Positions 10,538 to 56,797 of a stretch of DNA of 64,000 bases are shown piece by piece. The notes under the pieces are model-generated. The model searched no databases and was not told where the DNA came from. It saw only the letters and a list, made by a program, of their open reading frames with translations. The stretch's first letter is position 1; each line of letters begins with the position of its first letter. Origin of the DNA: an uncultured Bdellovibrionales bacterium (GTDB taxonomy: Bacteria; Patescibacteriota; Minisyncoccia; Moranbacterales; UBA1568); assembly GCA_964384235.1 (NCBI GenBank), contig CAYLJX010000004.1, positions 15,916 through 79,915 on the forward strand, read 5' to 3'. Position numbers and translations under genes: made by a program.

Positions 10538-10540
10538 TCT

Positions 10541-10640
10541 GAAGAATCAGGAATTACGAATCATGAATCAAGAATAGACAAACAAGGGAAGAAATGCAAT
10601 TCCTCGCTCTTGATTCTCAATTCTTGATTCTTTATTCTGC
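10541..10640. repeat. inverted pair of 7-bp tandem-repeat arrays: (NNNGAAT)x5 at 10541-10577, 26-bp spacer, (ATTCNNN)x4-5 at 10604-10640
   Basis: Read directly from the sequence: gaagaat caggaat tacgaat catgaat caagaat ... ctcttg attctca attcttg attcttt attctgc. The element fills the gap between the murF stop and the DUF475 start. Confidence 0.6.
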
Positions 10641-10641
10641 T

Positions 10642-14163: not shown

Positions 14164-15171
14164 TCAGATCTTTTCCGCGACACGGAGCTTGGCGCTCCGG
14201 GCCCGTGGATTGTCCTCGATCTCTTTCTTGGTCGGAATGATCGGGCGTTTCGTGATGATCTTCAATCGCGGAGACTGCCCGCAGCGACAGACCGGGAACT
14301 CAGGGGGGCAGACGCAGCCGCGAGCCTCTTCCTGAAAGAACCGCTTCACCGCCCTGTCCTCGCCGGAATGAAACGTGATGACCGCCAACCGGCCGCCGGA
14401 TCGAAGCATCCGCATCGCCGCCGGCAGGAACCGCTCCAGACGTTCCTCCTCACGATTGACCGCGATACGGAGTGCTTGGAACGTTTTCGTCGCCGGATGG
14501 ATGCTCATCCGGAAACGCCGTCGTTTCGGATAGGCGCTCTCGATGAGATCCGCGAGCGCTCTGGTCGTCGCGATCGGTTTCTCTGTTCTCGCCGCGACGA
14601 TCGCTTTCGTAATGCGACGACTCTCCGGTTCCTCGCCGTAGTCGTGAAAGATCTTTTCGAGCTCTTCCGGAGCGTACGTATTGACAATTTCGTCCGCCGT
14701 CAACGTTTCGCTTCGATCGAGACGCATGTCGAGCGGCCCGTCCTTCTGAAAAGAAAGTCCGCGCGCATCACTCTCGATCTGATCCGACGAAAACCCCAGG
14801 TCGGCGAGGATCGCATCGACACTCGACACGCCGATCGCCGTCAATCGTTCCTCGAGATCGGCGAAGTTGCTCCGCAGCATGAGAAGTGTTCCCTCCTTGA
14901 ACGCTTCCCGTGCATACGGGACATCCGCGAGCCGATCCTGGAAACGATCGATGGCTTCCTGGTCGGTATCGAATGCGATGAGTCGACCTTCCGGCCTGCC
15001 CGAATCGCAACGCTTCGCTTGCGAATCGTTGCGGGCGGGACGGACGCGCTCGAGCATGGCGAGCGTATGCCCGCCACCGCCCAAGGTCGCATCCACCACC
15101 GTCATTCCTTTGGCAAGGTGCAGCCCTTCCACTGTCTCTTTCAGCAATACCGGAATATGTTTCGTCTTCGA
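14164..15171 (-). CDS. rsmH: 16S rRNA (cytosine1402-N4)-methyltransferase
   Basis: MSKTKHIPVLLKETVEGL..., DATLGGGGH, and the conserved RsmH/MraW C-terminus. The start is placed at ATG 15171. Confidence 0.85.
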   Translation of the reverse strand, partial: SKTKHIPVLLKETVEGLHLAKGMTVVDATLGGGGHTLAMLERVRPARNDSQAKRCDSGRPEGRLIAFDTDQEAIDRFQDRLADVPYAREAFKEGTLLMLRSNFADLEERLTAIGVSSVDAILADLGFSSDQIESDARGLSFQKDGPLDMRLDRSETLTADEIVNTYAPEELEKIFHDYGEEPESRRITKAIVAARTEKPIATTRALADLIESAYPKRRRFRMSIHPATKTFQALRIAVNREEERLERFLPAAMRMLRSGGRLAVITFHSGEDRAVKRFFQEEARGCVCPPEFPVCRCGQSPRLKIITKRPIIPTKKEIEDNPRARSAKLRVAEKI

Positions 15172-15180
15172 CATACAACC

Positions 15181-15290
15181 CAAAACTCAAAAGTCAAAAG
15201 AAATGTCACGCCTGAAAACTTTTTTCACTTTTGATTTTTGACTTGTACTTGTCTTTCGGTTTTCCCTGTTGCCTATCGCCTACTGCCTAT
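15181..15290. repeat. inverted heptamer arrays (CAAAAGT)x3 at 15181-15201, 18-bp spacer, (ACTTTTG-type)x4 at 15227-15254, then (YGCCTAY)x3 at 15270-15290
   Basis: Read directly from the sequence. The arrays fill the mraZ-rsmH intergenic gap, which is normally very short. Confidence 0.55.
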
Positions 15291-15300
15291 ATTTCCTGTC

Positions 15301-15735
15301 CTAATACACTCCCAGCTTCCCAAGCTCCTCCGCGATCTTGCCCGTGTTCTTCTCGGCGGACTGCTTGTACTTCTTCCACTTCTCTTCGCTCCAGATTTCC
15401 AATCGGTTATAGAGTCCCACCACGACCACGTCCTTCCTGAGTCCCGCGTACGACTTGAGGTATTCCGGCACGAGCACGCGGCCCTGACTGTCGAGATCGA
15501 CGTCCGTCGCGCCCGCGAGCATGAGCCGGATGAAACTGCGCGTCCCCGCCTCGCCGACCGGGAGATTGCCGAGCTTCTCGGCGAGTCCCTCCCACACCTT
15601 CATCGGATAGACAAAGAGACAGTCATCGAGACCGCGCGTCACCACCACGCGGCTCCCGAGCTCCCCGCGGAACTTCGAAGGAAGCGCGAGGCGCTTCTTG
15701 GGATCGATGGTATGTGAGTATTCGCCGATGAACAT
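15301..15735 (-). CDS. mraZ: transcriptional regulator MraZ
   Basis: MFIGEYSHTIDPKKRLALPSKFR matches the MraZ N-terminus. The start is placed at the internal ATG 15735. The ORF track's 42-aa extension to 15861 is judged spurious. Confidence 0.85.
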   Translation of the reverse strand: MFIGEYSHTIDPKKRLALPSKFRGELGSRVVVTRGLDDCLFVYPMKVWEGLAEKLGNLPVGEAGTRSFIRLMLAGATDVDLDSQGRVLVPEYLKSYAGLRKDVVVVGLYNRLEIWSEEKWKKYKQSAEKNTGKIAEELGKLGVY

Positions 15736-15931
15736 GACGCTCGGAAAAGGAATTACTCCGCGACGAAAACCAAAATGAAGAAACTTCAGAGAAAACATTT
15801 TCCCCCTGAAATGTTTCAAAGAAGATAGTGGTGCCTTTTCAAGTTCCCCACTTTCACCCACTTTGGTTCACCGTATCCCCATTGTACGCCACCCCTCCAC
15901 CCCCGTCAACATTCCGACTTATCCACAACAA

Positions 15932-15953
15932 AAACGGCTCTGCAGAGCCGTTT
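15932..15953 (-). terminator. perfect 22-bp palindrome aaacggctctgcagagccgttt; likely intrinsic terminator of pepA (minus strand)
   Basis: 11-bp perfect stem. On the minus strand it is followed by UUUUGUUGUGG. Lies about 200 nt downstream of the pepA stop. Confidence 0.45.
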
Positions 15954-16159
15954 ACCAACAAACCAAGAGTTTTCAAAACTTTCATTTTCTTTCTCCGTGT
16001 GACGTCGGTAACATTTCTCACGAACGAGCCGGTAACGGTCGAGCGTGACAGATGGTCTCGACAGGACAGCTCCCCGTTCGGCAGAGTGAGTAAGAAATGT
16101 TCGACGGAACGAAAGGGAAAGAAAATGCAAAGATTTTGAAAACGTTCCGTTAAATCTAA

Positions 16160-17563
16160 TCAGAACTTTTCTAGCAACTTCACTAATAGTCGTACCGGGG
16201 CGCCGGCAGAACCCTTGGAGAGGAACTCGTCGGGAAGCGTTTCCATGCGCGGCGCGATATCGAGATGCACCCACGGGTACGCTTTGTCCACGAACTGTTT
16301 GAGAAACGCGGCGGCCGTGATCGCTCCGCCCCATCTGGTCTTGCCAAAGTTGGAAATATCGCCGAAGGTACCCTTGATATCCTGATCGTACTCGTCCCAG
16401 AGCGGAAGCGGCCAGACATAGTCACCGCTCTCCTCGCCGAGATGACGGAAACGCCGTTCGAGTTCCTCGTTCTCCGTAAAGAGCGCGCTCGCCCGTTCGC
16501 CGAGCGCCACCATCGCCGCACCGGTAAGTGTCGCCACGTCCACGACGAGTGACGGCTTGTACCGCTTGGCATAGTGAAGCGCGTCGGCCAAGATGATGCG
16601 GCCCTCCGCATCGGTATTGTCCACCTGGATGGTCTTGCCGCTCATGGAGCGGAGCACATCACCGGGCCGGTAGCTCGATCCGGACGGCATGTTCTCGACT
16701 GCCGGAATGAGCGCGACGATATTCTTCTTCAGTTTCAGACGCGCCGCCGCCGCGAGCGCGTGGATGACCGCTGCGCCCCCTGACATGTCCATGTTCATCC
16801 CGAGGACGGCCTCGCTCGGCTTGAGGTTGATACCGCCCGTATCAAACGTCACGCCCTTGCCGACCAACACGATGGATTTTTCCTTTGCATTTTTTGCACC
16901 GAAATATTCGAGAATGATGAATCGTGGTTTCGCCTCCGATCCCTTACCGACACCGAGCACGCCACCCATCTTGAGTTTTTTCATGGCTTCCTCGTCAAGC
17001 ACCGTGAGCTTCACCGGCAGCCCCTTGACCGATGCCCTGACGTGCTTGGCCAGGAGCTCCGGCGTCATCTCGCCGCCAGGCATGGTCGCGATGTGACGCG
17101 AACGGTTCGTCTCTTCCCCGACGACTTGCCCCCGCTCGATGCCGTCACGCACTTCCTTGCCGGCCGCGTTCACCAGGACGATTTCCTCGACATGCACGAA
17201 CCCCTCCTTCGGCTCGGAGAGAAAATCCTCGAACGCGAAATCCGCCAGAAAACAATTGACTGCCAGGAGCTCCGCAAGGTCTCTATCGCTCATTCCAAGA
17301 TGCGGGAAGCGAAACGATGAAAAATCGATGACAATCGTCTTGTATTTCCTGGCGATAGCCTCACGCACGATGCGCCGCGCGAGAAGGATGAGTTTCCGTC
17401 GTGTCATCTCGTCACTCTTGCCAACGACGAGCGAGATCGTCGCCCGACCACCCTGTTCACGGAGCACTCCGTCTTTTCCTTCTTCCGCGAGTACGGCCGC
17501 AAGCGTGCCTTTCTTCTGCCAGTACGATACATTTTCCCGAGAGATCTTGAAACGCATAGGCAA
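16160..17563 (-). CDS. pepA: leucyl aminopeptidase (M17 family)
   Basis: 467 aa carrying the M17 signature NTDAEGRIILADAL and metal-binding residues. Confidence 0.85.
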   Translation of the reverse strand: MPMRFKISRENVSYWQKKGTLAAVLAEEGKDGVLREQGGRATISLVVGKSDEMTRRKLILLARRIVREAIARKYKTIVIDFSSFRFPHLGMSDRDLAELLAVNCFLADFAFEDFLSEPKEGFVHVEEIVLVNAAGKEVRDGIERGQVVGEETNRSRHIATMPGGEMTPELLAKHVRASVKGLPVKLTVLDEEAMKKLKMGGVLGVGKGSEAKPRFIILEYFGAKNAKEKSIVLVGKGVTFDTGGINLKPSEAVLGMNMDMSGGAAVIHALAAAARLKLKKNIVALIPAVENMPSGSSYRPGDVLRSMSGKTIQVDNTDAEGRIILADALHYAKRYKPSLVVDVATLTGAAMVALGERASALFTENEELERRFRHLGEESGDYVWPLPLWDEYDQDIKGTFGDISNFGKTRWGGAITAAAFLKQFVDKAYPWVHLDIAPRMETLPDEFLSKGSAGAPVRLLVKLLEKF

Positions 17564-20847: not shown

Positions 20848-20859
20848 ATGATTGAAGAA

Positions 20860-20887
20860 GTGAGTAGTGGGTAGTTGGTAGTGAGTA
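20860..20887. repeat. tandem heptamer array (GTKRGTA)x4: gtgagta gtgggta gttggta gtgagta
   Basis: Read directly from the sequence, 13 nt upstream of the xth start codon. Confidence 0.5.
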
Positions 20888-20926
20888 GTCTATGAAAACC
20901 AAGGGGGCATTCCCATTGTAGCGGCA

Positions 20927-27019: not shown

Positions 27020-27101
27020 TTTGTTTTTCCTCCTTTTTTTCCTTCTTATTGTATCATACCCTCCCCTTCATCCTCTCGTCTCCCCTCTCCTCCCTCCTCA
27101 T

Positions 27102-27129
27102 TCCTGTCTCCTACTTCCTATCTCCTACC
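27102..27129. repeat. tandem heptamer array (TCCTRYY)x4: tcctgtc tcctact tcctatc tcctacc
   Basis: Read directly from the sequence. Overlaps the 3-prime end of gene 27125-28531. Preceded by a CT-rich tract (27061-27100). Confidence 0.45.
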
Positions 27130-29157: not shown

Positions 29158-30567
29158 TCAATTGGGAGTCATCTGGATATTTTCCGTCACCAAGGCACTA
29201 CCGACACCGACGGTCTTCGTCTCGGTACCGAATCCCGAAGCGGTCACCTCGACATCGTATGAACCGTTGACCAGGGCCGGGAGCGACGTCGGGAAATACG
29301 CGATACCGTACTGGTCCGTCGTGACCGTCGCATCATATGGGACGGACGTATTGGTCAGCCGGACGCTCGCCCCGGAAACGGGAGAATCGTCCGCCGAGCT
29401 CTTCACCGTCACCTTCACGGAACCGATGTTCTTGTCGAGGAGGATCGCTTCCATCGTGCCGGACGATCCCGGGACGAGATCCATGACATCGGCCGTCGAC
29501 GATGTTTCCGGATGCATCTTGTAAAACTCGTAATCAGCGTCGGAAACGGTCAGCGTATACTGACCGTAACTCTGGTCGGAGTAGGTCTTCTCGCCGGAGC
29601 TGTCCGTGGTTGACGTATCGGAAAAACCATAGACGTTCGCTCCGGTACCCGCATCCGTCCCAAGGACCCGGCCGCCGGAGAGCGTGAAGCCGATATCCGG
29701 GACATCCGTACCGAACGGATCCTTGGTCCGGAGCGGGATATCGACGTTTTGGTCCATGACGATCGTCTTCTGATTGAGGGTAGCTTCCACGACCGAGGCA
29801 TGAACATCGACCGGGTTGTACGCGGACGTCGGATAGGACGCGTATGTGGTCGCACCGTAATAGCCGCCCTTGGAAACGGTGAGAGTATAGGCTTCGACAC
29901 CGGCCGGCGCACCGGGAAGCATCACGTTGCCGGTCGAATCGGTCGTGGCGGTCGTGTCGATGCTCGCACCCGAATTGACGATGCGCACGCTCGCGCCCGA
30001 TACCCCGCTCCCGGTCGCATCCAGGACATTGATGGAAAGCGTCCCGCCGCCGCCGGACGTCTCCACGCCGTTGGGAGAGAAATTTCCGAAGATGACGACT
30101 TTCTGGTCATCCCCTCCCCCTCCCCACTCGACCGTGAGGCGGACGCGCTTATAATCGGTCGAAACCGTGTCATTGGGCGAGCCGCCGATCGTTCCGTCGA
30201 ACGAGTCGTCGACGTACTGCACGAAGGTATGCACGTCGTATCTCACCGTGTTGACACTGATCGTCTCGTCCTCCAGGAGTTCGCCGCCCGGGATACCATA
30301 GAGCCACGCCGACCCGTTCCAGCGCTTGGTACCGATGTCGTCATAGGCGATGCTCCGGATGATCTCCATCTTCTGGTTAGCGAGAGCCGTCGCGCCGAGA
30401 CGGTTCTTGGACTCGATGATCATACGCGTCCCCGTAGCATACACCTGAAAGAAGACCACCCCAATCAGAGCGAAGATGAACAGGAAAACGAGGGATTCAA
30501 TCAGGGTGAAGCCCTTTAACTTTGTATCTTGTATTTTGTATCTTGTATTTTGTATTGAAGAATTCAT
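29158..30567 (-). CDS. large prepilin-type protein (about 470 aa)
   Basis: The start is placed at ATG 30567 with leader MNSSIQNTRYKIQDTKLKG, then FTLIESLVFLFIFALIGVV. The GGAG RBS is about 10 nt upstream. The ORF track start at 30588 is less likely. Confidence 0.7.
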   Translation of the reverse strand: MNSSIQNTRYKIQDTKLKGFTLIESLVFLFIFALIGVVFFQVYATGTRMIIESKNRLGATALANQKMEIIRSIAYDDIGTKRWNGSAWLYGIPGGELLEDETISVNTVRYDVHTFVQYVDDSFDGTIGGSPNDTVSTDYKRVRLTVEWGGGGDDQKVVIFGNFSPNGVETSGGGGTLSINVLDATGSGVSGASVRIVNSGASIDTTATTDSTGNVMLPGAPAGVEAYTLTVSKGGYYGATTYASYPTSAYNPVDVHASVVEATLNQKTIVMDQNVDIPLRTKDPFGTDVPDIGFTLSGGRVLGTDAGTGANVYGFSDTSTTDSSGEKTYSDQSYGQYTLTVSDADYEFYKMHPETSSTADVMDLVPGSSGTMEAILLDKNIGSVKVTVKSSADDSPVSGASVRLTNTSVPYDATVTTDQYGIAYFPTSLPALVNGSYDVEVTASGFGTETKTVGVGSALVTENIQMTPN

Positions 30568-30618
30568 AAAAGTCCGTCTCCGCATCATACGAGATACTTG
30601 ATACAGGATACGAAATAC
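30522..30618. repeat. inverted heptamer arrays: (TTGTATY)x5 at 30522-30556, 34-bp spacer, (NNGATAC)x4 at 30591-30618
   Basis: Read directly from the sequence. The first array encodes the prepilin leader residues IQNTRYKIQDTK. The second lies immediately after the pilC stop. The spacer holds the pilin RBS and ATG. Confidence 0.55.
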
Positions 30619-32841: not shown

Positions 32842-32845
32842 AAGA

Positions 32846-32933
32846 GAGGCAATAGGCAGAAGGCAGAAGGCGGTCCAGAAAGAGCATTCTTATCTCATCC
32901 CTACTGCCTCAGTATCTATTGCCTACTGCCTAT
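32846..32933. repeat. inverted heptamer arrays: (NAGGCRR)x4 at 32846-32873, 28-bp spacer, (TGCCTNN) units at 32902-32933
   Basis: gaggcaa taggcag aaggcag aaggcgg ... tgcctca ... tgcctac tgcctat. The element fills the gap between the uvrA stop and the NTase start. It shares the gcctactgcctat 13-mer with 15278-15290. Confidence 0.5.
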
Positions 32934-35735
32934 CTACAAGTATTTCGAAGTAAAGCTCTTCTTGCAAGATTTCAGTTTGTTCGGCGGACCGGCGAAGATG
33001 AGCTCGCCGCCTTTTTCACCACCCTCGGGACCGAGTTCCAGAACCCAGTCCGCCGAGCGGATGACATCGGTGTTGTGCTCCACCACAAGGACGGTATTGC
33101 CTTTATCGACGAGCGCTTCGAGCACTTCGAGCAGTCGCCGCACGTCCTCGAAGTGCAGCCCGATGGTCGGTTCGTCGAGGATGTAGAGCGTCTTGCCGGT
33201 CGATTTGCGAGCAAGCTCGGTGGCAAGCTTGATACGCTGCGCCTCACCGCCGGAGAGGTTGGTCGCACTCTGACCGAGGACGAGGTAACCGAGGCCAACT
33301 TCTTCGAGCACGCGGAGTTTCTCCTCGATCATCGGCTGATCAAGGAAAAAGCGTCTCGCCTCCGTCACGGTCATGCGCAGGATCTGGGCGATGTTCATCC
33401 CGCGGTACTCGATGGAGAGCGTCTTCATGTTGTAACGCGTCCCCTGACAGACCTCGCACGGGATATAGACGTCCGGTAGGAGGTACATCTCGATCTTTTT
33501 CAGTCCCCCACCCTGGCACGTCTCACAGCGTCCGCCGCGCATATTGAAGGAAAAGTGGCTGGCGGAATACTTTTCCCGTTCAGCCTCCGGCGTCGCGGCG
33601 AAGAGGTCGCGGATGAGCCCAAAGACCCCGGTGTAGGTGGCAGCGTTGGAGCGCGGCGTGCGACCGATCGGATCCTGCGTCACGGCGATCACCTTGTCGA
33701 TATGGTCGAGACCCGTGATCTTCTTGTGCGCGCCCGGCTCGGCCTTGGCATGATAGAAATGCTTGGAGAGCGCCCTCGAGAGGATGTCATGGACGAGGCT
33801 CGACTTGCCGGAGCCGGAGACTCCGGAGACCGCGACGAGCATCCCGAGAGGGATCTTAGCATCGACGTTTCGGAGGTTATGCTCCGTCGCGCCGACGATC
33901 TCAATGGACTTGCCGGATCCTTTGCGGACTTTTTTCTTGGAAGAGACGCTTCGCTTACCGGAGAGGTACTGGCCGGTCAGGAGTTTGGAACGCATGAGCT
34001 TTTCCGGCGTCCCTTCGAAGATGACCTCGCCGCCCTCGCTCCCCGCACCGGGACCCATGTCGATGATATAGTCCGCTCGGCGCATGATGGCGACATCGTG
34101 CTCCACGACGACGAGGGAGTTGTTGGCCGAGCGCAGTTCCTCGAGTGCATTGATGAGCTTCTCCGTATCGCGGCTATGCAGCCCCACCGACGGTTCGTCC
34201 AGGACATAGATGATGCCGGAGAGTCCCGACTTCATCTGGACCGAGAGACGGATACGCTGCGCCTCGCCGCCGGAAAGGGTGTCAGCTCCGCGGGAAAGTT
34301 CGAGATAACCGAGACCCACCTTTTCCACCGAACGCACACGCATCTCCATCTCACGGAAGAGCGGATCGACGATGTCTTTCTCCCCGACTTTGAGAAGCGC
34401 CTCGCGCAGGGGTTTCAGTTCCGTGAGAAATTTCTCGACACTCCGGTCGACGATCTCGTTCATGGAGAGGCCGTTCACCTTGACCGACAACGATTCGGGC
34501 TTGAGCCGCTTGCCCTGGCAGTCCGGGCACGTCTTGGAAAGCATGTAGGTCTCGATCTCGGCGCGCAGATGGTCGGATTTGGTATCGCGGTATTTCTGCT
34601 CGAGGATCGGGATGACGCCGGGAAAAACATTTTCTTTCCCTCCCTCCTCTCCGAAGAGGACGAGCTTCATCTGCTTCGCGGACAGTTTCTTAACCGGGAT
34701 GTCGAGGGAAAATTTAGATTTCTTGGCGAGCTCACGAAGGAGCAACATCGGACCGCTCTGGGCGTGCCGATCACCGTTCATTTTGCTCCAGGGACGGATG
34801 GCACCTTCGGAAAACGAGAGGTTCTTGTTGGGGATGACGAGCTCCGGATCGAATTCCAGTGTCCGCCCGAGACCCGAACACTTTGGACAGGCCCCTTCGG
34901 GAGAGTTAAAGGAAAAATGACTCGGGGTGAACTCGGGCAGATGCACGTCGCACTCCTCGCAGCGGTACTCCTCGTTGTAGACGCGTTCCTCACCAGAACC
35001 GTTGATGCGAAGCGTGAGCGTCCCCTGTCCGACACGAAAAGCAGTCTGCAGGGAATCCAGGATGCGCTCCTTGTCCGGACGGACGGCGGAGAGCGCCATG
35101 CGATCGATGACGATACCGATGGTCGAGATATCCGAAGGAGAGGCTTCCGCAATAGCCTCGGCGATGGGGCGGATCTCGCCATGGAAGAGCACCCGAACAT
35201 ACCCCCACCCGTCGATCTGTGAGAGCACTTCTTTCTCCGTCTTTTCCACGAGGAGCGGACTGTAGGCCAAAAACGCGAGCGGCGTCTCATCGGGCAGAAG
35301 CAGGATCTCGTCGAGGATTTCCCGCACGCTCTTGCGTGAGAGCGTCTTGCCACACTGAGGACAATGTGGGACACCAAGCTTGGCGAAGAGGATACGCAGG
35401 TAGTCGTAGACCTCGGTCATGGTGCCGACCGTCGAGCGCGGAGAGCGCGACACGCTCTTCTGATCGATGGAGATGGCCGGCGAGAGGTTGTGAATGGCGT
35501 CCACGTCCGGCTTGTCGAAGCCTTCCATGAAGTTTCTCGCGTACGAGGAGAGCGATTCGACATAACGGCGGTTGGCCTCTGCAAAGAGCGTATCGAAGGC
35601 GAGCGATGACTTGCCCGAACCGGAGAGTCCCGTGATGACGACAAGCGAATCACGCGGGATATCGACCGAAACGTTCTTGAGATTATTGACACGCGCTCCC
35701 CGGACTTCGATCACCGACTTCTTGTTGTTTGGCAT
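32934..35735 (-). CDS. uvrA: excinuclease ABC subunit A (canonical, with insertion domain)
   Basis: 933 aa. Two ABC modules ([19 protein letters not shown]), zinc-finger cysteine pairs, and about 100 aa of insertion-domain region between CPKCSGLG and CPDCQGKRL. Confidence 0.9.
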
Positions 35736-35828: not shown

Positions 35829-37166
35829 CTACCGCAGGAATTCCTTACCGCGACGGCGGCGATGAAAGACGATGGCAAAACGGTGGGCTTCGCCGTTCGC
35901 GAGGAGGATGTCTTTTTTGAAACGCTTGACGAGCGACTGGTCGCCGACGAAACTTTTCGGCTGGTGTCGCTCGTCCTTGACGACACCGAGCACGGGAATG
36001 GTGAGGTGCACTTGTCGCAGGACCGAGAGCGCGACGCTCCGCTGCAGTTCCCCTCCGTCTACCACTATCATATCCGGAAGCGACCATTCGGTATGCCCGA
36101 GACGCCGCGTGAGGATTTCCCTGAGAGCCGTGAGGTCGTTTCCTTGGTGATCGCCTCGCAGACGGAATTGCCGATATTCGTCCTTGTCCGGTCGACTCCC
36201 CTCCACTACTGTCATGACCCCGACGCTCGCCACTCCCTGGAGATGTGCCACGTCATACGCCTCAATCCGAATTCTTGATTCTTGATTCTCAATTCTTGAT
36301 TCTTCCTTGATGAGCGCTATATCCTGGATATGTTGCAACCCGTAGAGGGTGTTGCGAAGCTCGGCCGCCCGTTCGAATTCCATCGCCTTCGCCGCCGCCT
36401 TCATTTCCCGCTCGAGACCCTTCACGAGTTTCTGCTTGTGCCCCTCGAAGAAGAGTCGGATATGCTGGATGGTCCGGCCGTACTCCCGTACGCTCACCTC
36501 TCCCGTACACACCCCGGGACACAGTCCGATCTGCCTGTTGAAACACGGGCGCACGCCTGTGTCCCGGACTCGATCCGGGACCCTCCCGTTACCACGAGAT
36601 CCCGAATCGCGCTTCGCTTGTCCGGGATGCTTCGCCGTTCTTTCGAACGGCTCGCATTTGTCCCTATACGGAAACAGTTTTCGCACGATCTTCATCGCCT
36701 CTTTCAGTCCCAGTCCCGAGAGGAACGGACCGAACATGTATTTCACTTTCGCGTCGAACTTCCCCTGCTCGATGTCTCGGCCGCGAACGATGAGCACCCG
36801 CGGGAACGGCTCGTCCGTGATGACGACATGGTTGTAGCTCTTGTCGTCCTTGGCGTCGGTGTTGTAGGGCGGCTGATGCTCCTTGATGAGACGCGATTCG
36901 AGGATGAGCGCCTCAAGGACCGAATCGGTCTGCCGGTAGGCGATGTACGAGACCTTGGGCAGCATGAGCGCGATCTTGGGGCCTCTCGTCTCCATCAGGT
37001 CGCTTGCGAAATAGCTCCGCACCCGGTCGCGCAAGGACGTCGCCTTGCCGATATAGAGGAGCGTTTTGGTCTCATCCAGGAAGAAGTACACCCCTGGATG
37101 CTCCGGCAGGGCGTTCTTCTTCTGAAACGACAGAAGCGTATGCGATTTTTCCCACAGTGTAGCCAT
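35829..37166 (-). CDS. uvrC: excinuclease ABC subunit C (short form, no C-terminal HhH pair evident)
   Basis: GIY-YIG motif (GVYFFLDE...[13 protein letters not shown]), UvrBC-interaction region and endonuclease domain. The start is placed at ATG 37166 (MATLWEK...). The ORF track's 24-aa extension would overlap the divergent gene. Confidence 0.8.
36271..36305. repeat. tandem heptamer array (ATTCTTG)x5 embedded in frame in uvrC coding sequence
   Basis: attcttg attcttg attctca attcttg attcttc on the plus strand encodes ...[16 protein letters not shown]... in UvrC. It is the same unit family as the 10541-10640 intergenic element. Confidence 0.5.
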
Positions 37167-37214
37167 AAATCGTGTCAGTACTATTGACTTCCAAGATAAA
37201 AAGGAGTATAATGT

Positions 37215-37583
37215 ATGAAAGTTAATTTTACAACTCACTCACAAAGAAGGAGGTTGGTTGTGGGAAACAATGTCAACACTTACGACATGATGGCGAACGA
37301 AGTGTACACCGTCATGAAGTCACCGAAGGAATTTGATCTACAACTCTACCGGGGAGCATTCGCCACCGTGGCACATAGGCACGGGATATGGCATCATCAA
37401 TACGCTCCGACGTACAACCGCTATTTCAAGCAAGTGATGGACCGGGTAAAGAACCTCATCCAAAATCCTCGCGGACTACAACCGGTGACACCCTCCGCTA
37501 CTCTCACACCTCCCCCGACACATGTCTACCACCGGCAATATGTCGATAACAAGATGCTTGCCGCCGGCGACTACGACGACTGA
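37215..37583 (+). CDS. hypothetical protein
   Basis: 122 aa. AAAAGGAG RBS sits 8 nt upstream of the ATG. A clean intrinsic terminator lies downstream. An alternative GTG start lies at about 37259 after AAGGAGG. Confidence 0.5.
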   Translation: MKVNFTTHSQRRRLVVGNNVNTYDMMANEVYTVMKSPKEFDLQLYRGAFATVAHRHGIWHHQYAPTYNRYFKQVMDRVKNLIQNPRGLQPVTPSATLTPPPTHVYHRQYVDNKMLAAGDYDD

Positions 37584-42640: not shown

Positions 42641-42994
42641 TCAGCCCTCCTGCGGTTTGGCGGCCGGCTTGGTAGGCTTCTTGACCGGCTTGTCGGCCAC
42701 TGTCGTCTTGACCGGCTTGTCGGCCACTGTCGTCTTGGCCGGCTTGGTAGGCTGGGTCGCCGGAGGGGGGACCGGCTTCTCCGCGGCTGCCTCCTGCGCG
42801 TCCTTGGCTTCCCGCTTCGCGGCGTGCTTGTCCAGCACGTCAGCGGATCCACTGGCAGCCTTGGCGCCGACCCGGGCCATGTCCGCCGACAGACTCATCA
42901 TGCTGGCACAGCCGCCGAGACCAAGGGAAATGACTGTCACCGCAAGAACGGTAAGAACTTTGTTCACGATAAACCCCCTTCGTAAAAAACGCAC
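42641..42994 (-). CDS. lipoprotein with proline/lysine-rich repetitive C-terminus
   Basis: Signal peptide plus lipobox LGLGGC. Carries the tandem KTTVADKPV repeat. Confidence 0.6.
   Translation of the reverse strand: MRFLRRGFIVNKVLTVLAVTVISLGLGGCASMMSLSADMARVGAKAASGSADVLDKHAAKREAKDAQEAAAEKPVPPPATQPTKPAKTTVADKPVKTTVADKPVKKPTKPAAKPQEG
42681..42746. repeat. exact 27-bp tandem duplication (ttgaccggcttgtcggccactgtcgtc x2) plus partial third copy inside the lipoprotein gene
   Basis: Copies at 42681-42707 and 42708-42734 are identical, followed by the partial ttggccggcttg. Confidence 0.7.
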
Positions 42995-46430: not shown

Positions 46431-46524
46431 GAGATATGAGGTATATGAGATAGGAGATATGAAATCCGTATTGCATCAGACGATGACGAACGAAACGGTG
46501 ACGAGGTCGCCGTCGGAAAATAAG

Positions 46525-47216: not shown

Positions 47217-47265
47217 AGATGATAAGGAGTAAGAGACAAGGGACAAGTAACAAGAAAAGGGGGAG

Positions 47266-51863: not shown

Positions 51864-52469
51864 ATGACCAAAGACAACAATCCACAATCCGAGGTGAAGC
51901 CTCTCCTTGAAAGAGTGGCGCTCGGGGCACCGAAATATGTCGGGTCGCCTGTTTCGCTCGTCCTCCACACGATCTTCTTCGTGGGGATTTTCGGCTTGCA
52001 GTTCGTCGGCTTCGGCTTCGACCAGATCATGCTCATCCTCACCACGGTCGTCTCGCTCGAGGCCATCTACCTCTCCATCTTCATCCAGATGACGGTCAAC
52101 CACCAGGCCAAGCAGATCGAGGAAGTGAGCGAGGACGTCGAGGAGATCAGCGAGGACGTGGAAGGCATCTCTGAGGACGTCGAGGAAATTTCCAAGGACA
52201 TTGATGACATCCAGGAGGACGTGGAGGACATTTCGGAAGACGTGGAAGAGATTTCCAAGGACATTGATGACATCCAGGAGGACGTCAAGGAAATCGGTGA
52301 GGACGTGGAGGAAATATCGGAAGACGTGGAAGATATCGGCGAGGAAATCGAAAAGGATGACAAGGAGTATACCGCCGACCGCACGCAGGACGTCCAAAAG
52401 ATCCAAAAAATCGAGGGCGTCCTCGAAGAGCTTCTGAAAGAGATCAGGGAGATGAAGGTACGCAAGTAG
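51864..52469 (+). CDS. DUF1003-family membrane protein with C-terminal acidic heptad-repeat tail
   Basis: The N-terminal two-TM core with LILTTVVSLEAIYLSIFIQMTVNHQ matches the DUF1003 pattern. The C-terminus carries (SEDVEEI)-type 7-aa repeats x11. Confidence 0.65.
   Translation: MTKDNNPQSEVKPLLERVALGAPKYVGSPVSLVLHTIFFVGIFGLQFVGFGFDQIMLILTTVVSLEAIYLSIFIQMTVNHQAKQIEEVSEDVEEISEDVEGISEDVEEISKDIDDIQEDVEDISEDVEEISKDIDDIQEDVKEIGEDVEEISEDVEDIGEEIEKDDKEYTADRTQDVQKIQKIEGVLEELLKEIREMKVRK
52118..52355. repeat. 21-bp (7-codon) tandem repeat x11 with a 63-bp higher-order duplication, inside gene 51864-52469
   Basis: EEVSEDV EEISEDV EGISEDV EEISKDI DDIQEDV ... The 35-nt string atttccaaggacattgatgacatccaggaggacgt occurs at both 52187-52221 and 52250-52284. 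Confidence 0.75.
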
Positions 52470-54202: not shown

Positions 54203-56797
54203 CTACCCTCTTTTCCCTGTTGTCAACACCTTCTTGAGATACATACCGGTATACGAGCCGGTTTTGCGGGCGACTTCCTCGGGCGTGCCATGGGCGACGA
54301 GCTTGCCGCCGCCCGATCCGCCTTCCGGTCCGATATCGATGACATAGTCGGCGCTCTTGATGAGATCCATGTTGTGCTCAATGACGAGGACGGTATTACC
54401 CTTCACCACGAGACGTTCGAGGATCTCGATCAGTTTCTTGACATCCTCGTAGTGGAGCCCGATGGTCGGCTCATCGAGGAGATAGATGGTGCGCTCGATG
54501 TGCTGGCGGTAGAGCTCGCTCGCGATTTTCACGCGCTGCGCTTCGCCGCCGGAGAGCGTGGTCGCGGATTGGCCGAGCTTGAGATAACCGAGACCCACTT
54601 CGTTGAGCGTCTTCAGCCGGTCGGCGATGGCCGGGATGTCATGGAAGAACGCGTAGGATTCCTCGATGGTCATCTCGAGCACCTCGTAGACGTTCTTGTG
54701 CTTGTACTTGACCTCGAGGGTTTCCTTGGTGAAGCGCTTGCCATCGCAGACGTCGCACGTCACGTAGACCGTCGGGAGAAAGTGCATCTCGACGGCGATG
54801 AAGCCGTTCCCCTCGCACGTCTCGCAACGCCCGCCGGGACGATTGAAGGAAAAGCGGCCGGCGCGCCACCCCCTGACCCGCGCCTCTTCCGTCGAGGCGA
54901 AGAGGTCGCGCACGTGCGTCCACGCGCCGGTGTAGGTGGCCGGATTGGAGCGAGGCGTCCGACCGATCGGACTCTGATCGATGAGGACCGCGCGGGAGAG
55001 GTACTCGCTCCCGGTGAACGTCTTGCAATGGAAGGTCTTGTTGGATTTGTAGCGGCGGTCGAAACGGGTCTGGAGGTTCTTGTGGATGATCTCGTAGAGA
55101 AGGGTCGACTTGCCCGAGCCGGACACGCCCGTGATGACGTTGAAGCGTCCGAGTGGGATGTCGACGTTCATGTTCTTGATATTGAAGAGCTCTCCGCCGC
55201 GGACCTTGAGCTCGCCCTTTTCCTTGGTCCGGCGGGTCGCCGGGACAGGCACGCGCGTCTCGTCACGCAGGTATGAGAGCGTGAGCGACCCCGATTTGTT
55301 CTTGGGCGCGGTGAGGAGCTCATCGAGAAAACCGGAAACCACGACGCTTCCGCCATGGACGCCGGCACCGGGTCCGATATCGACGATGTAGTCCGAGGCG
55401 AAGATCGTGTCCTCGTCATGCTCCACCACGATGATGGTGTTGCCGAGGCTCCGCAGGGCCTGGAGCGTCTCGATGAGCCGCTCGTTGTCACGTTGGTGCA
55501 GACCGATGGTCGGTTCGTCGAGGACGTAGAGCGCGCCCACGAGCTGGGAGCCGAGCTGCGAAGCGAGCCGGATACGCTGGGCCTCGCCGCCGGAGAGTGT
55601 GTTGGCCCGACGATCGAGGGTGAGATAGTTGAGGCCGACATTGAGGAGAAACTGCAGCCGCGAGCCGATCTCACGGAGGACCACCGCGGCGATCTCACGC
55701 TCACGCTCGGTGAGATCGAGTCCGTCGAAAAAATTCCTCGCGTCTTCGGTGGTGAGCTTGGTCAGTTCGACAATGTTTCGTTTGCCGACGAGGACGTGGA
55801 GCGCTTCCTCGCGCAGACGCGTCCCGTGACAGACCTCACACGGCTCGTCGCCGAAAAAGTGCTTGGTCCCGAGACCGTTGCAGGCCTCACAAGCACCATA
55901 GGGAGAGTTGAAGGAGAAAAGGCGCGGCTCGACCTCCGGATAGGAGAAGCCGTCATAAGGACAGGCGAACTTGGCCGAGAGGACGAACGGATCCGCACCA
56001 AGATGGATTTTCACGAGACCTTCGCTCTCCTCGATAGCGCGCTCCACCGCTTCGGAGAGACGCTCGCCGGACGTCTCGGGAAACTTCTCGAATTCGATGA
56101 GCGGCACCTCGTCGACGATGAGGTCGATGTCATGCTTCTTGTTCTTGGAGAGGATGACCTGTTCGCGCAGGCTCTTGCGCTCGCCGTCGAGGAAGATTTC
56201 CGAGAAACCTTTGCTCAGGGCATTGTAGAGGAGCTGATAGTACTCCCCTTTGCGGCCGCGCACCACCGGTGCCGTGATGATGAGCGAATCGTTTTTTTTC
56301 TTCGGCGAAACAAGAGCTTTCTTCATCCGTTCGCGCACGATCTCGAGCATCTCCTCGGTGGAGAGCTTTTGGATCTCGCGGTTGCAGACGAGACAGTGCG
56401 GCCGGCCCAACCGTGCGAAGAGCACGCGCAGGTAGTCATAGATCTCCGTCACGGTAGCGACCGTCGACCGAGGGTTCCTGCTCGCGGACTTCTGGTCGAT
56501 GGAGATGGCCGGTGAGAGACCGACGATCTCGTCCACGTCCGGCTTCTGCATGGTATTGAGGAATTGCCTGGCATACGCAGAAAGCGACTCGACGTAGCGG
56601 CGCTGCCCCTCGGCGAAGATCGTATCGAAGGCCAGGGAGGACTTGCCGGAACCAGAAAGACCGGTGAAGACGACCATCTTGTTCCGTGGCATCTCGACGG
56701 TGATGTTCTTGAGATTGTGAGTGCGCGCGCCCTTCACGACGATCCACTCAGAGGGTTCGTGTTTCATTGGGGTCATGTTTTTCGATGATTTGGACAT
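54203..56797 (-). CDS. uvrA: excinuclease ABC subunit A paralog lacking the insertion-domain segment
   Basis: 864 aa with both ABC modules and zinc-finger cysteines. After CEACNGLG...CEVCHGTRL the sequence continues directly into the signature region. The paralog at 32934-35735 has about 100 extra residues at this position. The N-terminal start is uncertain (56797, 56776 or 56767). Confidence 0.85.

Follow-up and report, generated by a model that had tools for sequence, protein, structure and literature searches.

We report a hairpin built of 7-nt repeat units in the spacer between mraZ and rsmH (also called mraW), the first junction of the division and cell wall (dcw) operon, on a 64,000-nucleotide stretch of contig CAYLJX010000004.1 (hereafter the window, meaning this whole stretch of DNA). 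In the predicted fold, the rsmH AUG and its leader are buried in an A-U-rich stem of ~34 bp. Because relatives keep a hairpin at the same spot, the structure is probably an inherited control element and not a recent repeat insertion. Our favored reading, which we judge to have an evenly balanced chance of being right, is that it is a functional post-transcriptional hairpin that limits or gates rsmH translation, or that marks an RNA processing site. Judged by its RsmH, the host is a member of the candidate phyla radiation (CPR, or Patescibacteria) near 'Candidatus Moranbacteria/Moraniibacteriota', since the named RsmH homologues carry the label Candidatus Moraniibacteriota; the closest non-identical RsmH is 62% identical.

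A predicted hairpin over the rsmH start codon

The initial annotation had called the mraZ-rsmH spacer unusually long, and we agree: it measures 126 nt (130 in that annotation), as against a median of 11 nt from mraZ stop to rsmH start in 130 loci from other phyla among the matches listed (quartiles 2/11/34; at least 100 nt in 10 of the 130). This control set, used for both spacer length and period-7 density, was drawn from genome and metagenome contig scans, whose matches came mostly from other phyla; relatives were obtained singly by exact-protein look-ups. Gene calls made independently on public contigs of identical sequence put the ends of mraZ and rsmH at the same positions.

On the mRNA strand, the 5' part of the spacer reads UAG-gacaggaaat-AUAGGCA GUAGGCG AUAGGCA-acagggaaaaccgaaa-gACAAGUACAAGU CAAAAAU CAAAAGU GAAAAAAGU, and the 3' part continues uuucaggcgug-ACAUUUC UUUUGAC UUUUGAG UUUUGGG UUGU-AUG. 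Seen on the plus strand, the array CAAAACT CAAAAGT CAAAAG occupies 15181-15200 (Tandem Repeats Finder: period 7, 2.9 copies, 92% matches) and is separated by a loop of 18-19 nt from an imperfect array, ACTTTTT/ACTTTTG/ATTTTTG/ACTTGT, at 15220-15247. The arms of the inverted repeat (15174-15208 and 15213-15247) are 35 nt long and 77% complementary, and a lag scan placed period-7 arrays at 15177-15200 and 15254-15289. Every repeat element initially listed for the spacer is present, but the order of the triplet and the perfection of the repeats had been given slightly wrongly: the triplet runs TGCCTAT CGCCTAC TGCCTAT on the plus strand.

The initial annotation also held that these TGCCTAY units recur near 32902-32933, and they do so as an exact 18-mer at 32916-32933. 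On the mRNA strand the triplet 18-mer is ATAGGCAGTAGGCGATAG (15273-15290), and its second copy lies just past the uvrA stop. Zero-mismatch copies of the 18-mer ATAGGCAGTAGGCRATAG occur in the window only at 15273-15290(-) and 32916-32933(-), both directly 3' of a stop codon (mraZ and uvrA, respectively); allowing up to three mismatches gives four window matches, against 0.05 expected by chance. No pairing partner of the ATAGGCA triplet was found within ±2 kb, and the triplet is single-stranded in a 420-nt fold.

Downstream of the triplet, the mRNA-strand hairpin (15253-15170) has a predicted free energy of -27.1 kcal/mol (z = -4.54), a stability reached by none of 200 dinucleotide shuffles; the opposite strand of the region gives -22.5 kcal/mol. 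The stem begins about 47 nt past the mraZ stop. Its 3' arm includes the rsmH start codon (15172-15174) plus the motif GGGUUGUAUG, which is kept in relatives. In the predicted fold, the rsmH AUG is paired with P of at least 0.9 throughout 4-50°C. Mean pairing probability over positions -20 to +3 is 0.71 for rsmH and 0.51 for 60 other genes with leaders of at least 45 nt from the same loci (Mann-Whitney p = 0.002).

We considered an RNA thermometer of the fourU or ROSE-like kind and rejected it: predicted pairing over -12 to +3 stays at 0.81-0.85 from 4 to 50°C. Rfam gave no match at gathering score in the whole window, and none at E<=1 on 15100-16200.

Long spacers and their hairpins among relatives

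A spacer of 65-164 nt separates mraZ from rsmH in 14 of the 16 sampled Moranbacteria-like relatives (Table 1, where these and other loci bear L numbers). The long spacer, unusual in general, is normal for this clade and ancestral there. The initial annotation had suggested that repeat elements were inserted into the operon junction; this view finds no support, given an ancestral spacer and a hairpin that can be aligned with those of L175/L178 and L169. Comparison of the junction with relatives gave a mixed picture, in that the long spacer is kept and its sequence is often unrelated, but that sequence is again heptad-repetitive and hairpin-forming.

Every long spacer carries a hairpin that ends at the rsmH start, ends within about 12 nt of it, or includes the start codon. 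In type I (L085, L086, L005, L006, L089, L102, and L187), one stem fills nearly the whole spacer, from 3-8 nt past the mraZ stop to the start codon. Its 5' side is (AATTNNN)4 and its 3' side (NNNAATT)4, with an invariant AATT core and a mismatch at every seventh position. Across a six-species alignment of the 27-pair type I stem, 86.4% of cells are paired, compared with 77.6±1.6 in shuffles (0/500 as high), and double changes occur at 10 pairs, compared with 5.3 expected (0/500). Controls with slid partners were 33-60% paired.

The window belongs to type II, together with the L175/L178 group and L169. These three lineages share a hairpin, UCAAAAAUMAAA…UUUUGA…GGGUUGWAUG, that can be aligned over 26 consensus pairs, the AUG among them, and that includes the pattern UCAAAAAU…UUUUGA…GGGUUGWAUG. 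A type II covariance model scores 76.8 bits on the sense strand of the window and 33.7 on the antisense strand; searched over the window and 54 loci, it picked up no further copy, the best other match having E = 0.26. The hairpin is 69% identical between the window and L175, as against 40% at mraZ third codon positions (mraZ itself is 83% identical at the amino acid level). RNAalifold returned no consensus for the window with L169, L087, and L170; alignment succeeded once L175/L178 were included.

A third form, common to L087, L170, and L186, is a hairpin without heptads in which the start codon and a Shine-Dalgarno-like GGAGG are both sequestered; L087 has an extra AGGAATC heptad array upstream. 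Across species, the arm-to-arm loop varies from ~13 to ~80 nt with arm complementarity kept, and the hairpin-bearing species span 37 to 56% G+C.

A second inverted heptad hairpin (ACAACUG…/GUUGUAG…) is common to L089 (1275-1358) and L102 (5958-6043). Its placement just downstream of rsmH is deduced from the rsmH coordinates, and more than one dcw junction can therefore bear such stems.

Of 18 heptad hairpins, which are not all independent, 14 are more stable on the transcribed strand (mean difference -2.6 kcal/mol; Wilcoxon p = 0.034), a sense/antisense comparison that is weakly significant. Given this bias, the variable distance between the arms, and the paired rsmH initiation region, we favor an intramolecular transcript hairpin over a duplex protein site. 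Counting G-U against A-C pairs (46 vs 9) was rejected as a test of RNA versus DNA, being biased by minimum-free-energy folding.

Table 1. Coordinates of the features discussed and spacer lengths of the loci compared
Feature	Position	Strand	Description
mraZ	15301-15735	minus	Pfam MraZ, 5.7e-37; 144 aa; stop TAG at 15301-15303
rsmH (mraW)	14164-15174	minus	Pfam Methyltransf_5, 3.7e-107; 336 aa; ATG at 15174
mraZ-rsmH intercistronic spacer	15175-15300	minus	126 nt; about 33% G+C (window 56% G+C)
Heptad triplet	15270-15290	minus	ATAGGCA GTAGGCG ATAGGCA; begins 10 nt past mraZ stop
Hairpin 5' arm	15218-15253	minus	GACAAGUACAAGU CAAAAAU CAAAAGU GAAAAAAGU; A-rich heptads
Hairpin apical region	15205-15217	minus	small CAGGCGUG stem-loop
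Hairpin 3' arm	15170-15204	minus	ACAUUUC UUUUGAC UUUUGAG UUUUGGG UUGUAUGUC
Predicted mraZ promoter	15909-15881	minus	TTGACG-17-TACAAT, near-consensus; upstream of MraZ-box-like repeat
Stop-to-start hairpin, murE/DUF475-TerC gene	10538-10641	minus	inverted AGAATCA-type and GATTCNT-type heptads; -34 to -37 kcal/mol
Inverted heptads	30500-30618	minus	GUAUYYN x5 and AUACAAR x5; downstream of T2SSF (pilC-like) gene
Stop-to-start hairpin, uvrA/next gene	32842-32933	minus	5' arm ATAGGCA GTAGGCA carries the spacer 18-mer; -39 kcal/mol
Spacer lengths, relatives			L085 102 nt; L086 114 nt; L005 99 nt; L087 155-164 nt; L006 159 nt
Spacer lengths, relatives			L089 124 nt; L102 118 nt; L092 65 nt; L169 127 nt; L170 145 nt
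Spacer lengths, relatives and window			L175 group 82 nt; L185 112 nt; L186 117 nt; L187 89 nt; window 126 nt
Short-spacer exceptions			L090 8 nt; L091/L097 1 nt

Possible roles of the hairpin

The results above show the anatomy, conservation, covariation, strand bias, and in silico start-codon occlusion; that transcripts cross the spacer, and that the hairpin alters translation or processing, is inferred along the following lines. Because the 3' arm takes in the final ~30 nt of the leader together with the rsmH AUG, the initiation region would be locked in a long A-U-rich stem. Ribosomes would load poorly on rsmH, and RsmH output would be low or would depend on an opening event, for which ribosomes arriving from mraZ, a helicase, or cleavage by a double-strand RNase (e.g., RNase III) are candidates. 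Cleavage of the duplex would also part the mraZ message from the downstream division genes. In type I relatives, termination of a ribosome on mraZ would open the stem at its base and free the rsmH start, amounting to classical translational coupling. The heptad make-up probably stems from clade-wide slippage that amplifies 7-nt units in non-coding DNA, building and remodeling the hairpin, with arm complementarity kept by selection and/or by arm-to-arm template switching.

Several points weigh against this reading. Read-through transcription of the spacer is assumed. Simple translational coupling fits type I, where the stem lies 3-8 nt after the stop, better than it fits the window locus. With a stem that starts about 47 nt past the mraZ stop, beyond what a terminating ribosome would open, the window would need another opening route, perhaps a duplex-specific RNase or the docking of ribosomes on 'standby' at the unpaired, purine-rich ATAGGCA/AGGG segment. 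Since L090 and L091/L097 have spacers no longer than 1-8 nt, the element is dispensable in some lineages. Between the window and L169 the hairpin is 53% identical, no higher than the third-position identity of 50%, and the four-sequence type II alignment that contains the window has a single compensatory pair; most of its conservation is identity of sequence within low-complexity, A/T-rich surroundings. The covariation could be explained by arm-to-arm gene conversion without RNA function, and the hairpin-bearing species compared are related, not phylogenetically independent. G-U pairs are more numerous on the sense strand (46 vs 34), but not significantly so. The inverted heptads at 30500-30618 fold much better on the antisense (+) strand than on the mRNA strand, a fold that an RNA-level model leaves unexplained.

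It is possible, if rather doubtful, that the hairpin has no role at all: 7-nt slippage would act in dispensable non-coding DNA, template switching would homogenize the resulting quasi-palindromes, and the spacer would simply be tolerated. Period-7 arrays are indeed general in the clade, at 17-22 per 100 kb. In the window, a lag-autocorrelation scan with local shuffles found 11, against 0.57 expected, and at most three for each of the other periods between 4 and 15; on inspection, all but one of the 11 fall between open reading frames (ORFs). The 13 clade loci contain 34 such arrays in 157 kb (21.7 per 100 kb; at most nine at any other period). In 152 loci of other phyla among the matches listed there are 24 in 1.3 Mb (1.8 per 100 kb), with 6 the commonest period, making the density in the clade 12-fold higher. 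We counted AATT-N3-AATT-N3-AATT 29 times in the clade loci, where the same core was absent at any other spacing. Further points in favor of neutrality are the unrelated units at many junctions, the array in frame within an inter-domain linker of uvrC, the absence of the spacer from some relatives, and the over-representation of heptamers across many bacteria that has been laid to polymerase slippage (PMC4692102). Against it, hairpins recur at one junction across species of widely differing G+C content: mraZ-rsmH spacers hold 14 of the 34 clade arrays (41%) in 0.8% of the bases, and in L085 and L086 this is the sole spacer of up to 330 nt with arrays, the other short spacers having none. The mraZ-rsmH junction is an array hotspot within a clade-wide habit. 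Neutrality also sits poorly with a stem that always adjoins the start codon, with GGGUUGWAUG and UCAAAAAU motifs kept above third-codon-position identity, and with the sense-strand bias in stability.

A bolder version of the favored post-transcriptional reading, which we consider unlikely, would make heptad-register hairpins a dedicated 'operon punctuation' of Moranbacteria, set between a stop and the next start. Under such a scheme, helices of 5-6 bp interrupted at every seventh position, with an AAUU core in many species, would be read by a dedicated factor, whether a helicase, a duplex RNase, or an RNA-binding protein with heptad periodicity; alternatively, ribosomes would, on terminating, cross the stem base and re-initiate in a shunt-like form of coupling. 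Were this true, the mraZ-rsmH copy would be a conserved master switch heading the cell-division operon and setting its MraZ:RsmH ratio.

A role at the DNA level, as a protein-binding array or a cruciform, is quite unlikely. A/T-rich inverted repeats extrude cruciforms easily, and the palindromic AATT core is invariant at each 7 bp in six relatives. Heptad direct repeats also bind protein elsewhere, as with TTTTGAT in the cholera toxin promoter (bioRxiv 10.1101/2021.05.14.444153). Such an element could be an operator for MraZ or another regulator, a site bound by nucleoid proteins, or a promoter inside the operon that drives rsmH and the division genes downstream. An arm distance that varies as widely as described above is, however, incompatible with a fixed duplex operator; the window hairpin is without AATT heptads, and folding favors the sense strand. 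A scan for sigma-70-like promoters on the sense strand was empty in 10 of 11 spacers, that of the window included. MraZ binds GTGG-type motifs repeated at a 10-bp period (bioRxiv 10.1101/2022.02.09.479790), and we rejected an MraZ operator in the spacer, where the period is 7 and no GTGG occurs. The sole GTGGN6GTGG MraZ-box-like repeat of the window lies upstream of mraZ (15861-15848, minus strand), the canonical operator position.

We consider it very unlikely that the hairpin is a transcription attenuator or terminator that reduces read-through from mraZ to rsmH. It is stable, lies downstream of mraZ, and has a U-rich 3' arm in the window, but that arm is A-rich in type I relatives. An intrinsic terminator within 15175-15300 was rejected: the scan was empty, with no G+C-rich stem and U tract, and the stem, at about 33% G+C, is followed by AUGUCGAAG. 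Furthermore, rsmH and the essential ftsL, ftsI, and murE have no detectable downstream promoter of their own. Least credible, and extremely unlikely, is a small mobile repeat (akin to a miniature inverted-repeat transposable element, MITE, or a repetitive extragenic palindromic element, REP) inserted at the junction: the structure is an imperfect palindrome at an intergenic site, ATAGGCAGTAGGCRATAG is common to the uvrA junction, and ATTCTTG arrays are common to three window sites, but an orthologous, alignable hairpin exists in other species, neither repeat search nor covariance model found a second hairpin copy in 64 kb, no terminal repeats with target-site duplication were seen, and the four near-identical strains differ in neither presence nor copy number.

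Neighboring genes and other repeats of the window

The local gene order is M17 aminopeptidase (16160-17563), mraZ, rsmH, an ftsL-sized ORF, ftsI, murE, and the DUF475/TerC gene. A gene for a KhpA-like KH protein follows a few genes later. Nearly all window genes lie on the minus strand, and most are without a recognizable Shine-Dalgarno sequence. No tRNA or tmRNA was found in the 64-kb window. The promoter and the MraZ-box-like repeat upstream of mraZ suggest, at the sequence level, that normal MraZ autoregulation is retained in this CPR lineage. Upstream of that promoter is a terminator-like hairpin (15953-15932, minus). L001, L002, and L003, Logan assemblies of this organism that are independent of one another, all stop exactly at position 16080, 345 nt upstream of mraZ, which ENA contig L172 and the window cross; the common break may reflect strain variation or a repeat boundary.

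At least three other spacers of the window, each between co-directional genes, are filled with inverted heptad arrays that form hairpins (10538-10641, 30500-30618, and 32842-32933), with sense-strand folds of -21 to -39 kcal/mol. Other heptad arrays take different forms. In uvrC (ORF 35829-37238, minus), an in-frame array of five units, GAAGAAT CAAGAAT UGAGAAT CAAGAAT CAAGAAT on the mRNA, occupies 36271-36304. In the protein, this corresponds to the linker that joins the UVR motif (aa 270-298) to the RNase H-like domain (aa 320-455), and slippage arrays therefore also enter coding linkers. Its unit is that of the murE-DUF475 hairpin arm at 10608-10638. Upstream of pilM, at 27020-27124, a purine-rich array (GGUAGGA GAUAGGA AGUAGGA GACAGGA AUGAGGA GGGAGGA …) adjoins the start codon, offers about ten consecutive GGAG/AGGA Shine-Dalgarno-like motifs, and is near-unstructured (-2.9 kcal/mol). 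Three pyrimidine-rich single arrays, at 20848-20889 (CUACUCA…), 46431-46460 (AUAUCUC…), and 47231-47257 (CUUGUYN…), end right at start codons, and the genes that follow them are without a Shine-Dalgarno sequence.

Longer repeats are also present. An acidic repeat protein rich in E and D is encoded at 52087-52372 by tandem repeats of 21/42/63 nt (some 11 copies of the 21-nt unit, 65-79% matches), and a nearly perfect 27-nt tandem repeat lies at 42679-42746 (2.5 copies, 97% matches). Two UvrA-like paralogues, at 32934-35735 and 54203-56797, are about 21 kb apart and are themselves visible as several families of 63-81% identical DNA repeats; the first was checked by Pfam, and the second (864 aa) was assigned from DNA repeats and ORF length.

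Parallels and significance

The nearest parallel is found in Actinobacteria, where a conserved structured RNA, the mraW RNA motif (Rfam RF01746), lies in the mraW leader, with a mechanism that is not established (PMC3890552, PMC4046766). Both elements are candidate cis-regulators, structured rsmH leaders that follow mraZ where the dcw operon begins. They differ in phylum and in kind: the Rfam model is unmatched here even at E<=1, and our element consists of one long, A-U-rich hairpin of heptads, with the start codon inside it. Initiation-sequestering hairpins, such as those of MS2 coat-replicase and of ribosomal protein operons, likewise pair a distal start codon and leader (predicted here), and the other arm of type I, 3-8 nt past the proximal stop, has the geometry of unmasking by ribosomes. 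The stems here are longer, however (30-50 bp), with a mismatch at every seventh position, and the 5' arm of the window lies ~47 nt from the stop.

A heptameric repeat class is also familiar from the short tandemly repeated repetitive (STRR) heptamers of cyanobacteria. Intergenic heptamers such as GGGAATC in Xanthomonas and GGGGAYT in Nostoc are over-represented in non-coding DNA, for which slippage has been proposed; these heptameric simple sequence repeats (SSRs) vary between close species, and some inverted pairs are able to form stem-loops (PMC4692102). The arrays described here resemble them in being over-represented, mainly non-coding, head-to-tail, and of period 7. Copy number did not vary between close strains: four near-identical strains of this organism and 12 contigs of the L175 group showed a single point change and no unit gained or lost. 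Unlike those heptamers, the units here are A/T-rich or mixed and not G-rich, so no G-quadruplex is possible; they are also typically paired as stop-to-start operon hairpins, at one junction conserved with covariation.

TAACTGA direct repeats lie a few nucleotides upstream of starts that have no Shine-Dalgarno sequence in Beggiatoaceae, cyanobacteria, and Bacteroidetes, and a translational role has been proposed for them (MacGregor 2015; PMC4679880). The three pyrimidine-rich single arrays of the window are similar. However, TAACTGA is one fixed unit genome-wide and is almost never inverted, whereas here the unit changes from site to site (CAAAAGT, ATAGGCA, and others) and the focal element pairs two inverted arrays. 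Enterobacterial REPs and bacterial interspersed mosaic elements (BIMEs) share with our hairpins the form of imperfect palindromes between genes of one operon. REPs reportedly act in mRNA stability and, when near a stop codon, in translation of the upstream gene (work ascribed to Newbury 1987 and to Liang, Rudd and Deutscher 2015). They differ in being hundreds of copies of one consensus, mobilized by REP-associated tyrosine transposases (RAYTs); here the sequences are junction-specific, with no dispersed identical copies in 64 kb. In open-access papers and bioRxiv, we found no literature on heptamer arrays or an rsmH leader hairpin in CPR, Parcubacteria, or Moranbacteria.

The excess of 7-nt arrays in this clade carries a bacterial heptamer-repeat bias into a new phylum, and the arrays are natural examples of slippage building and remodeling RNA stems. 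Note that A/T-rich heptad palindromes can mislead assemblers and gene callers when genomes are reconstructed from metagenomes. In Escherichia coli, MraZ and RsmH are reportedly antagonistic in division, a result attributed to Eraso et al. 2014. The parallel with the actinobacterial mraW RNA motif suggests a recurrent need to control entry into rsmH. CPR bacteria are almost all uncultured and little is known of their gene regulation; the hairpin at the first dcw junction offers a concrete, testable candidate for a cis-regulator in this group.

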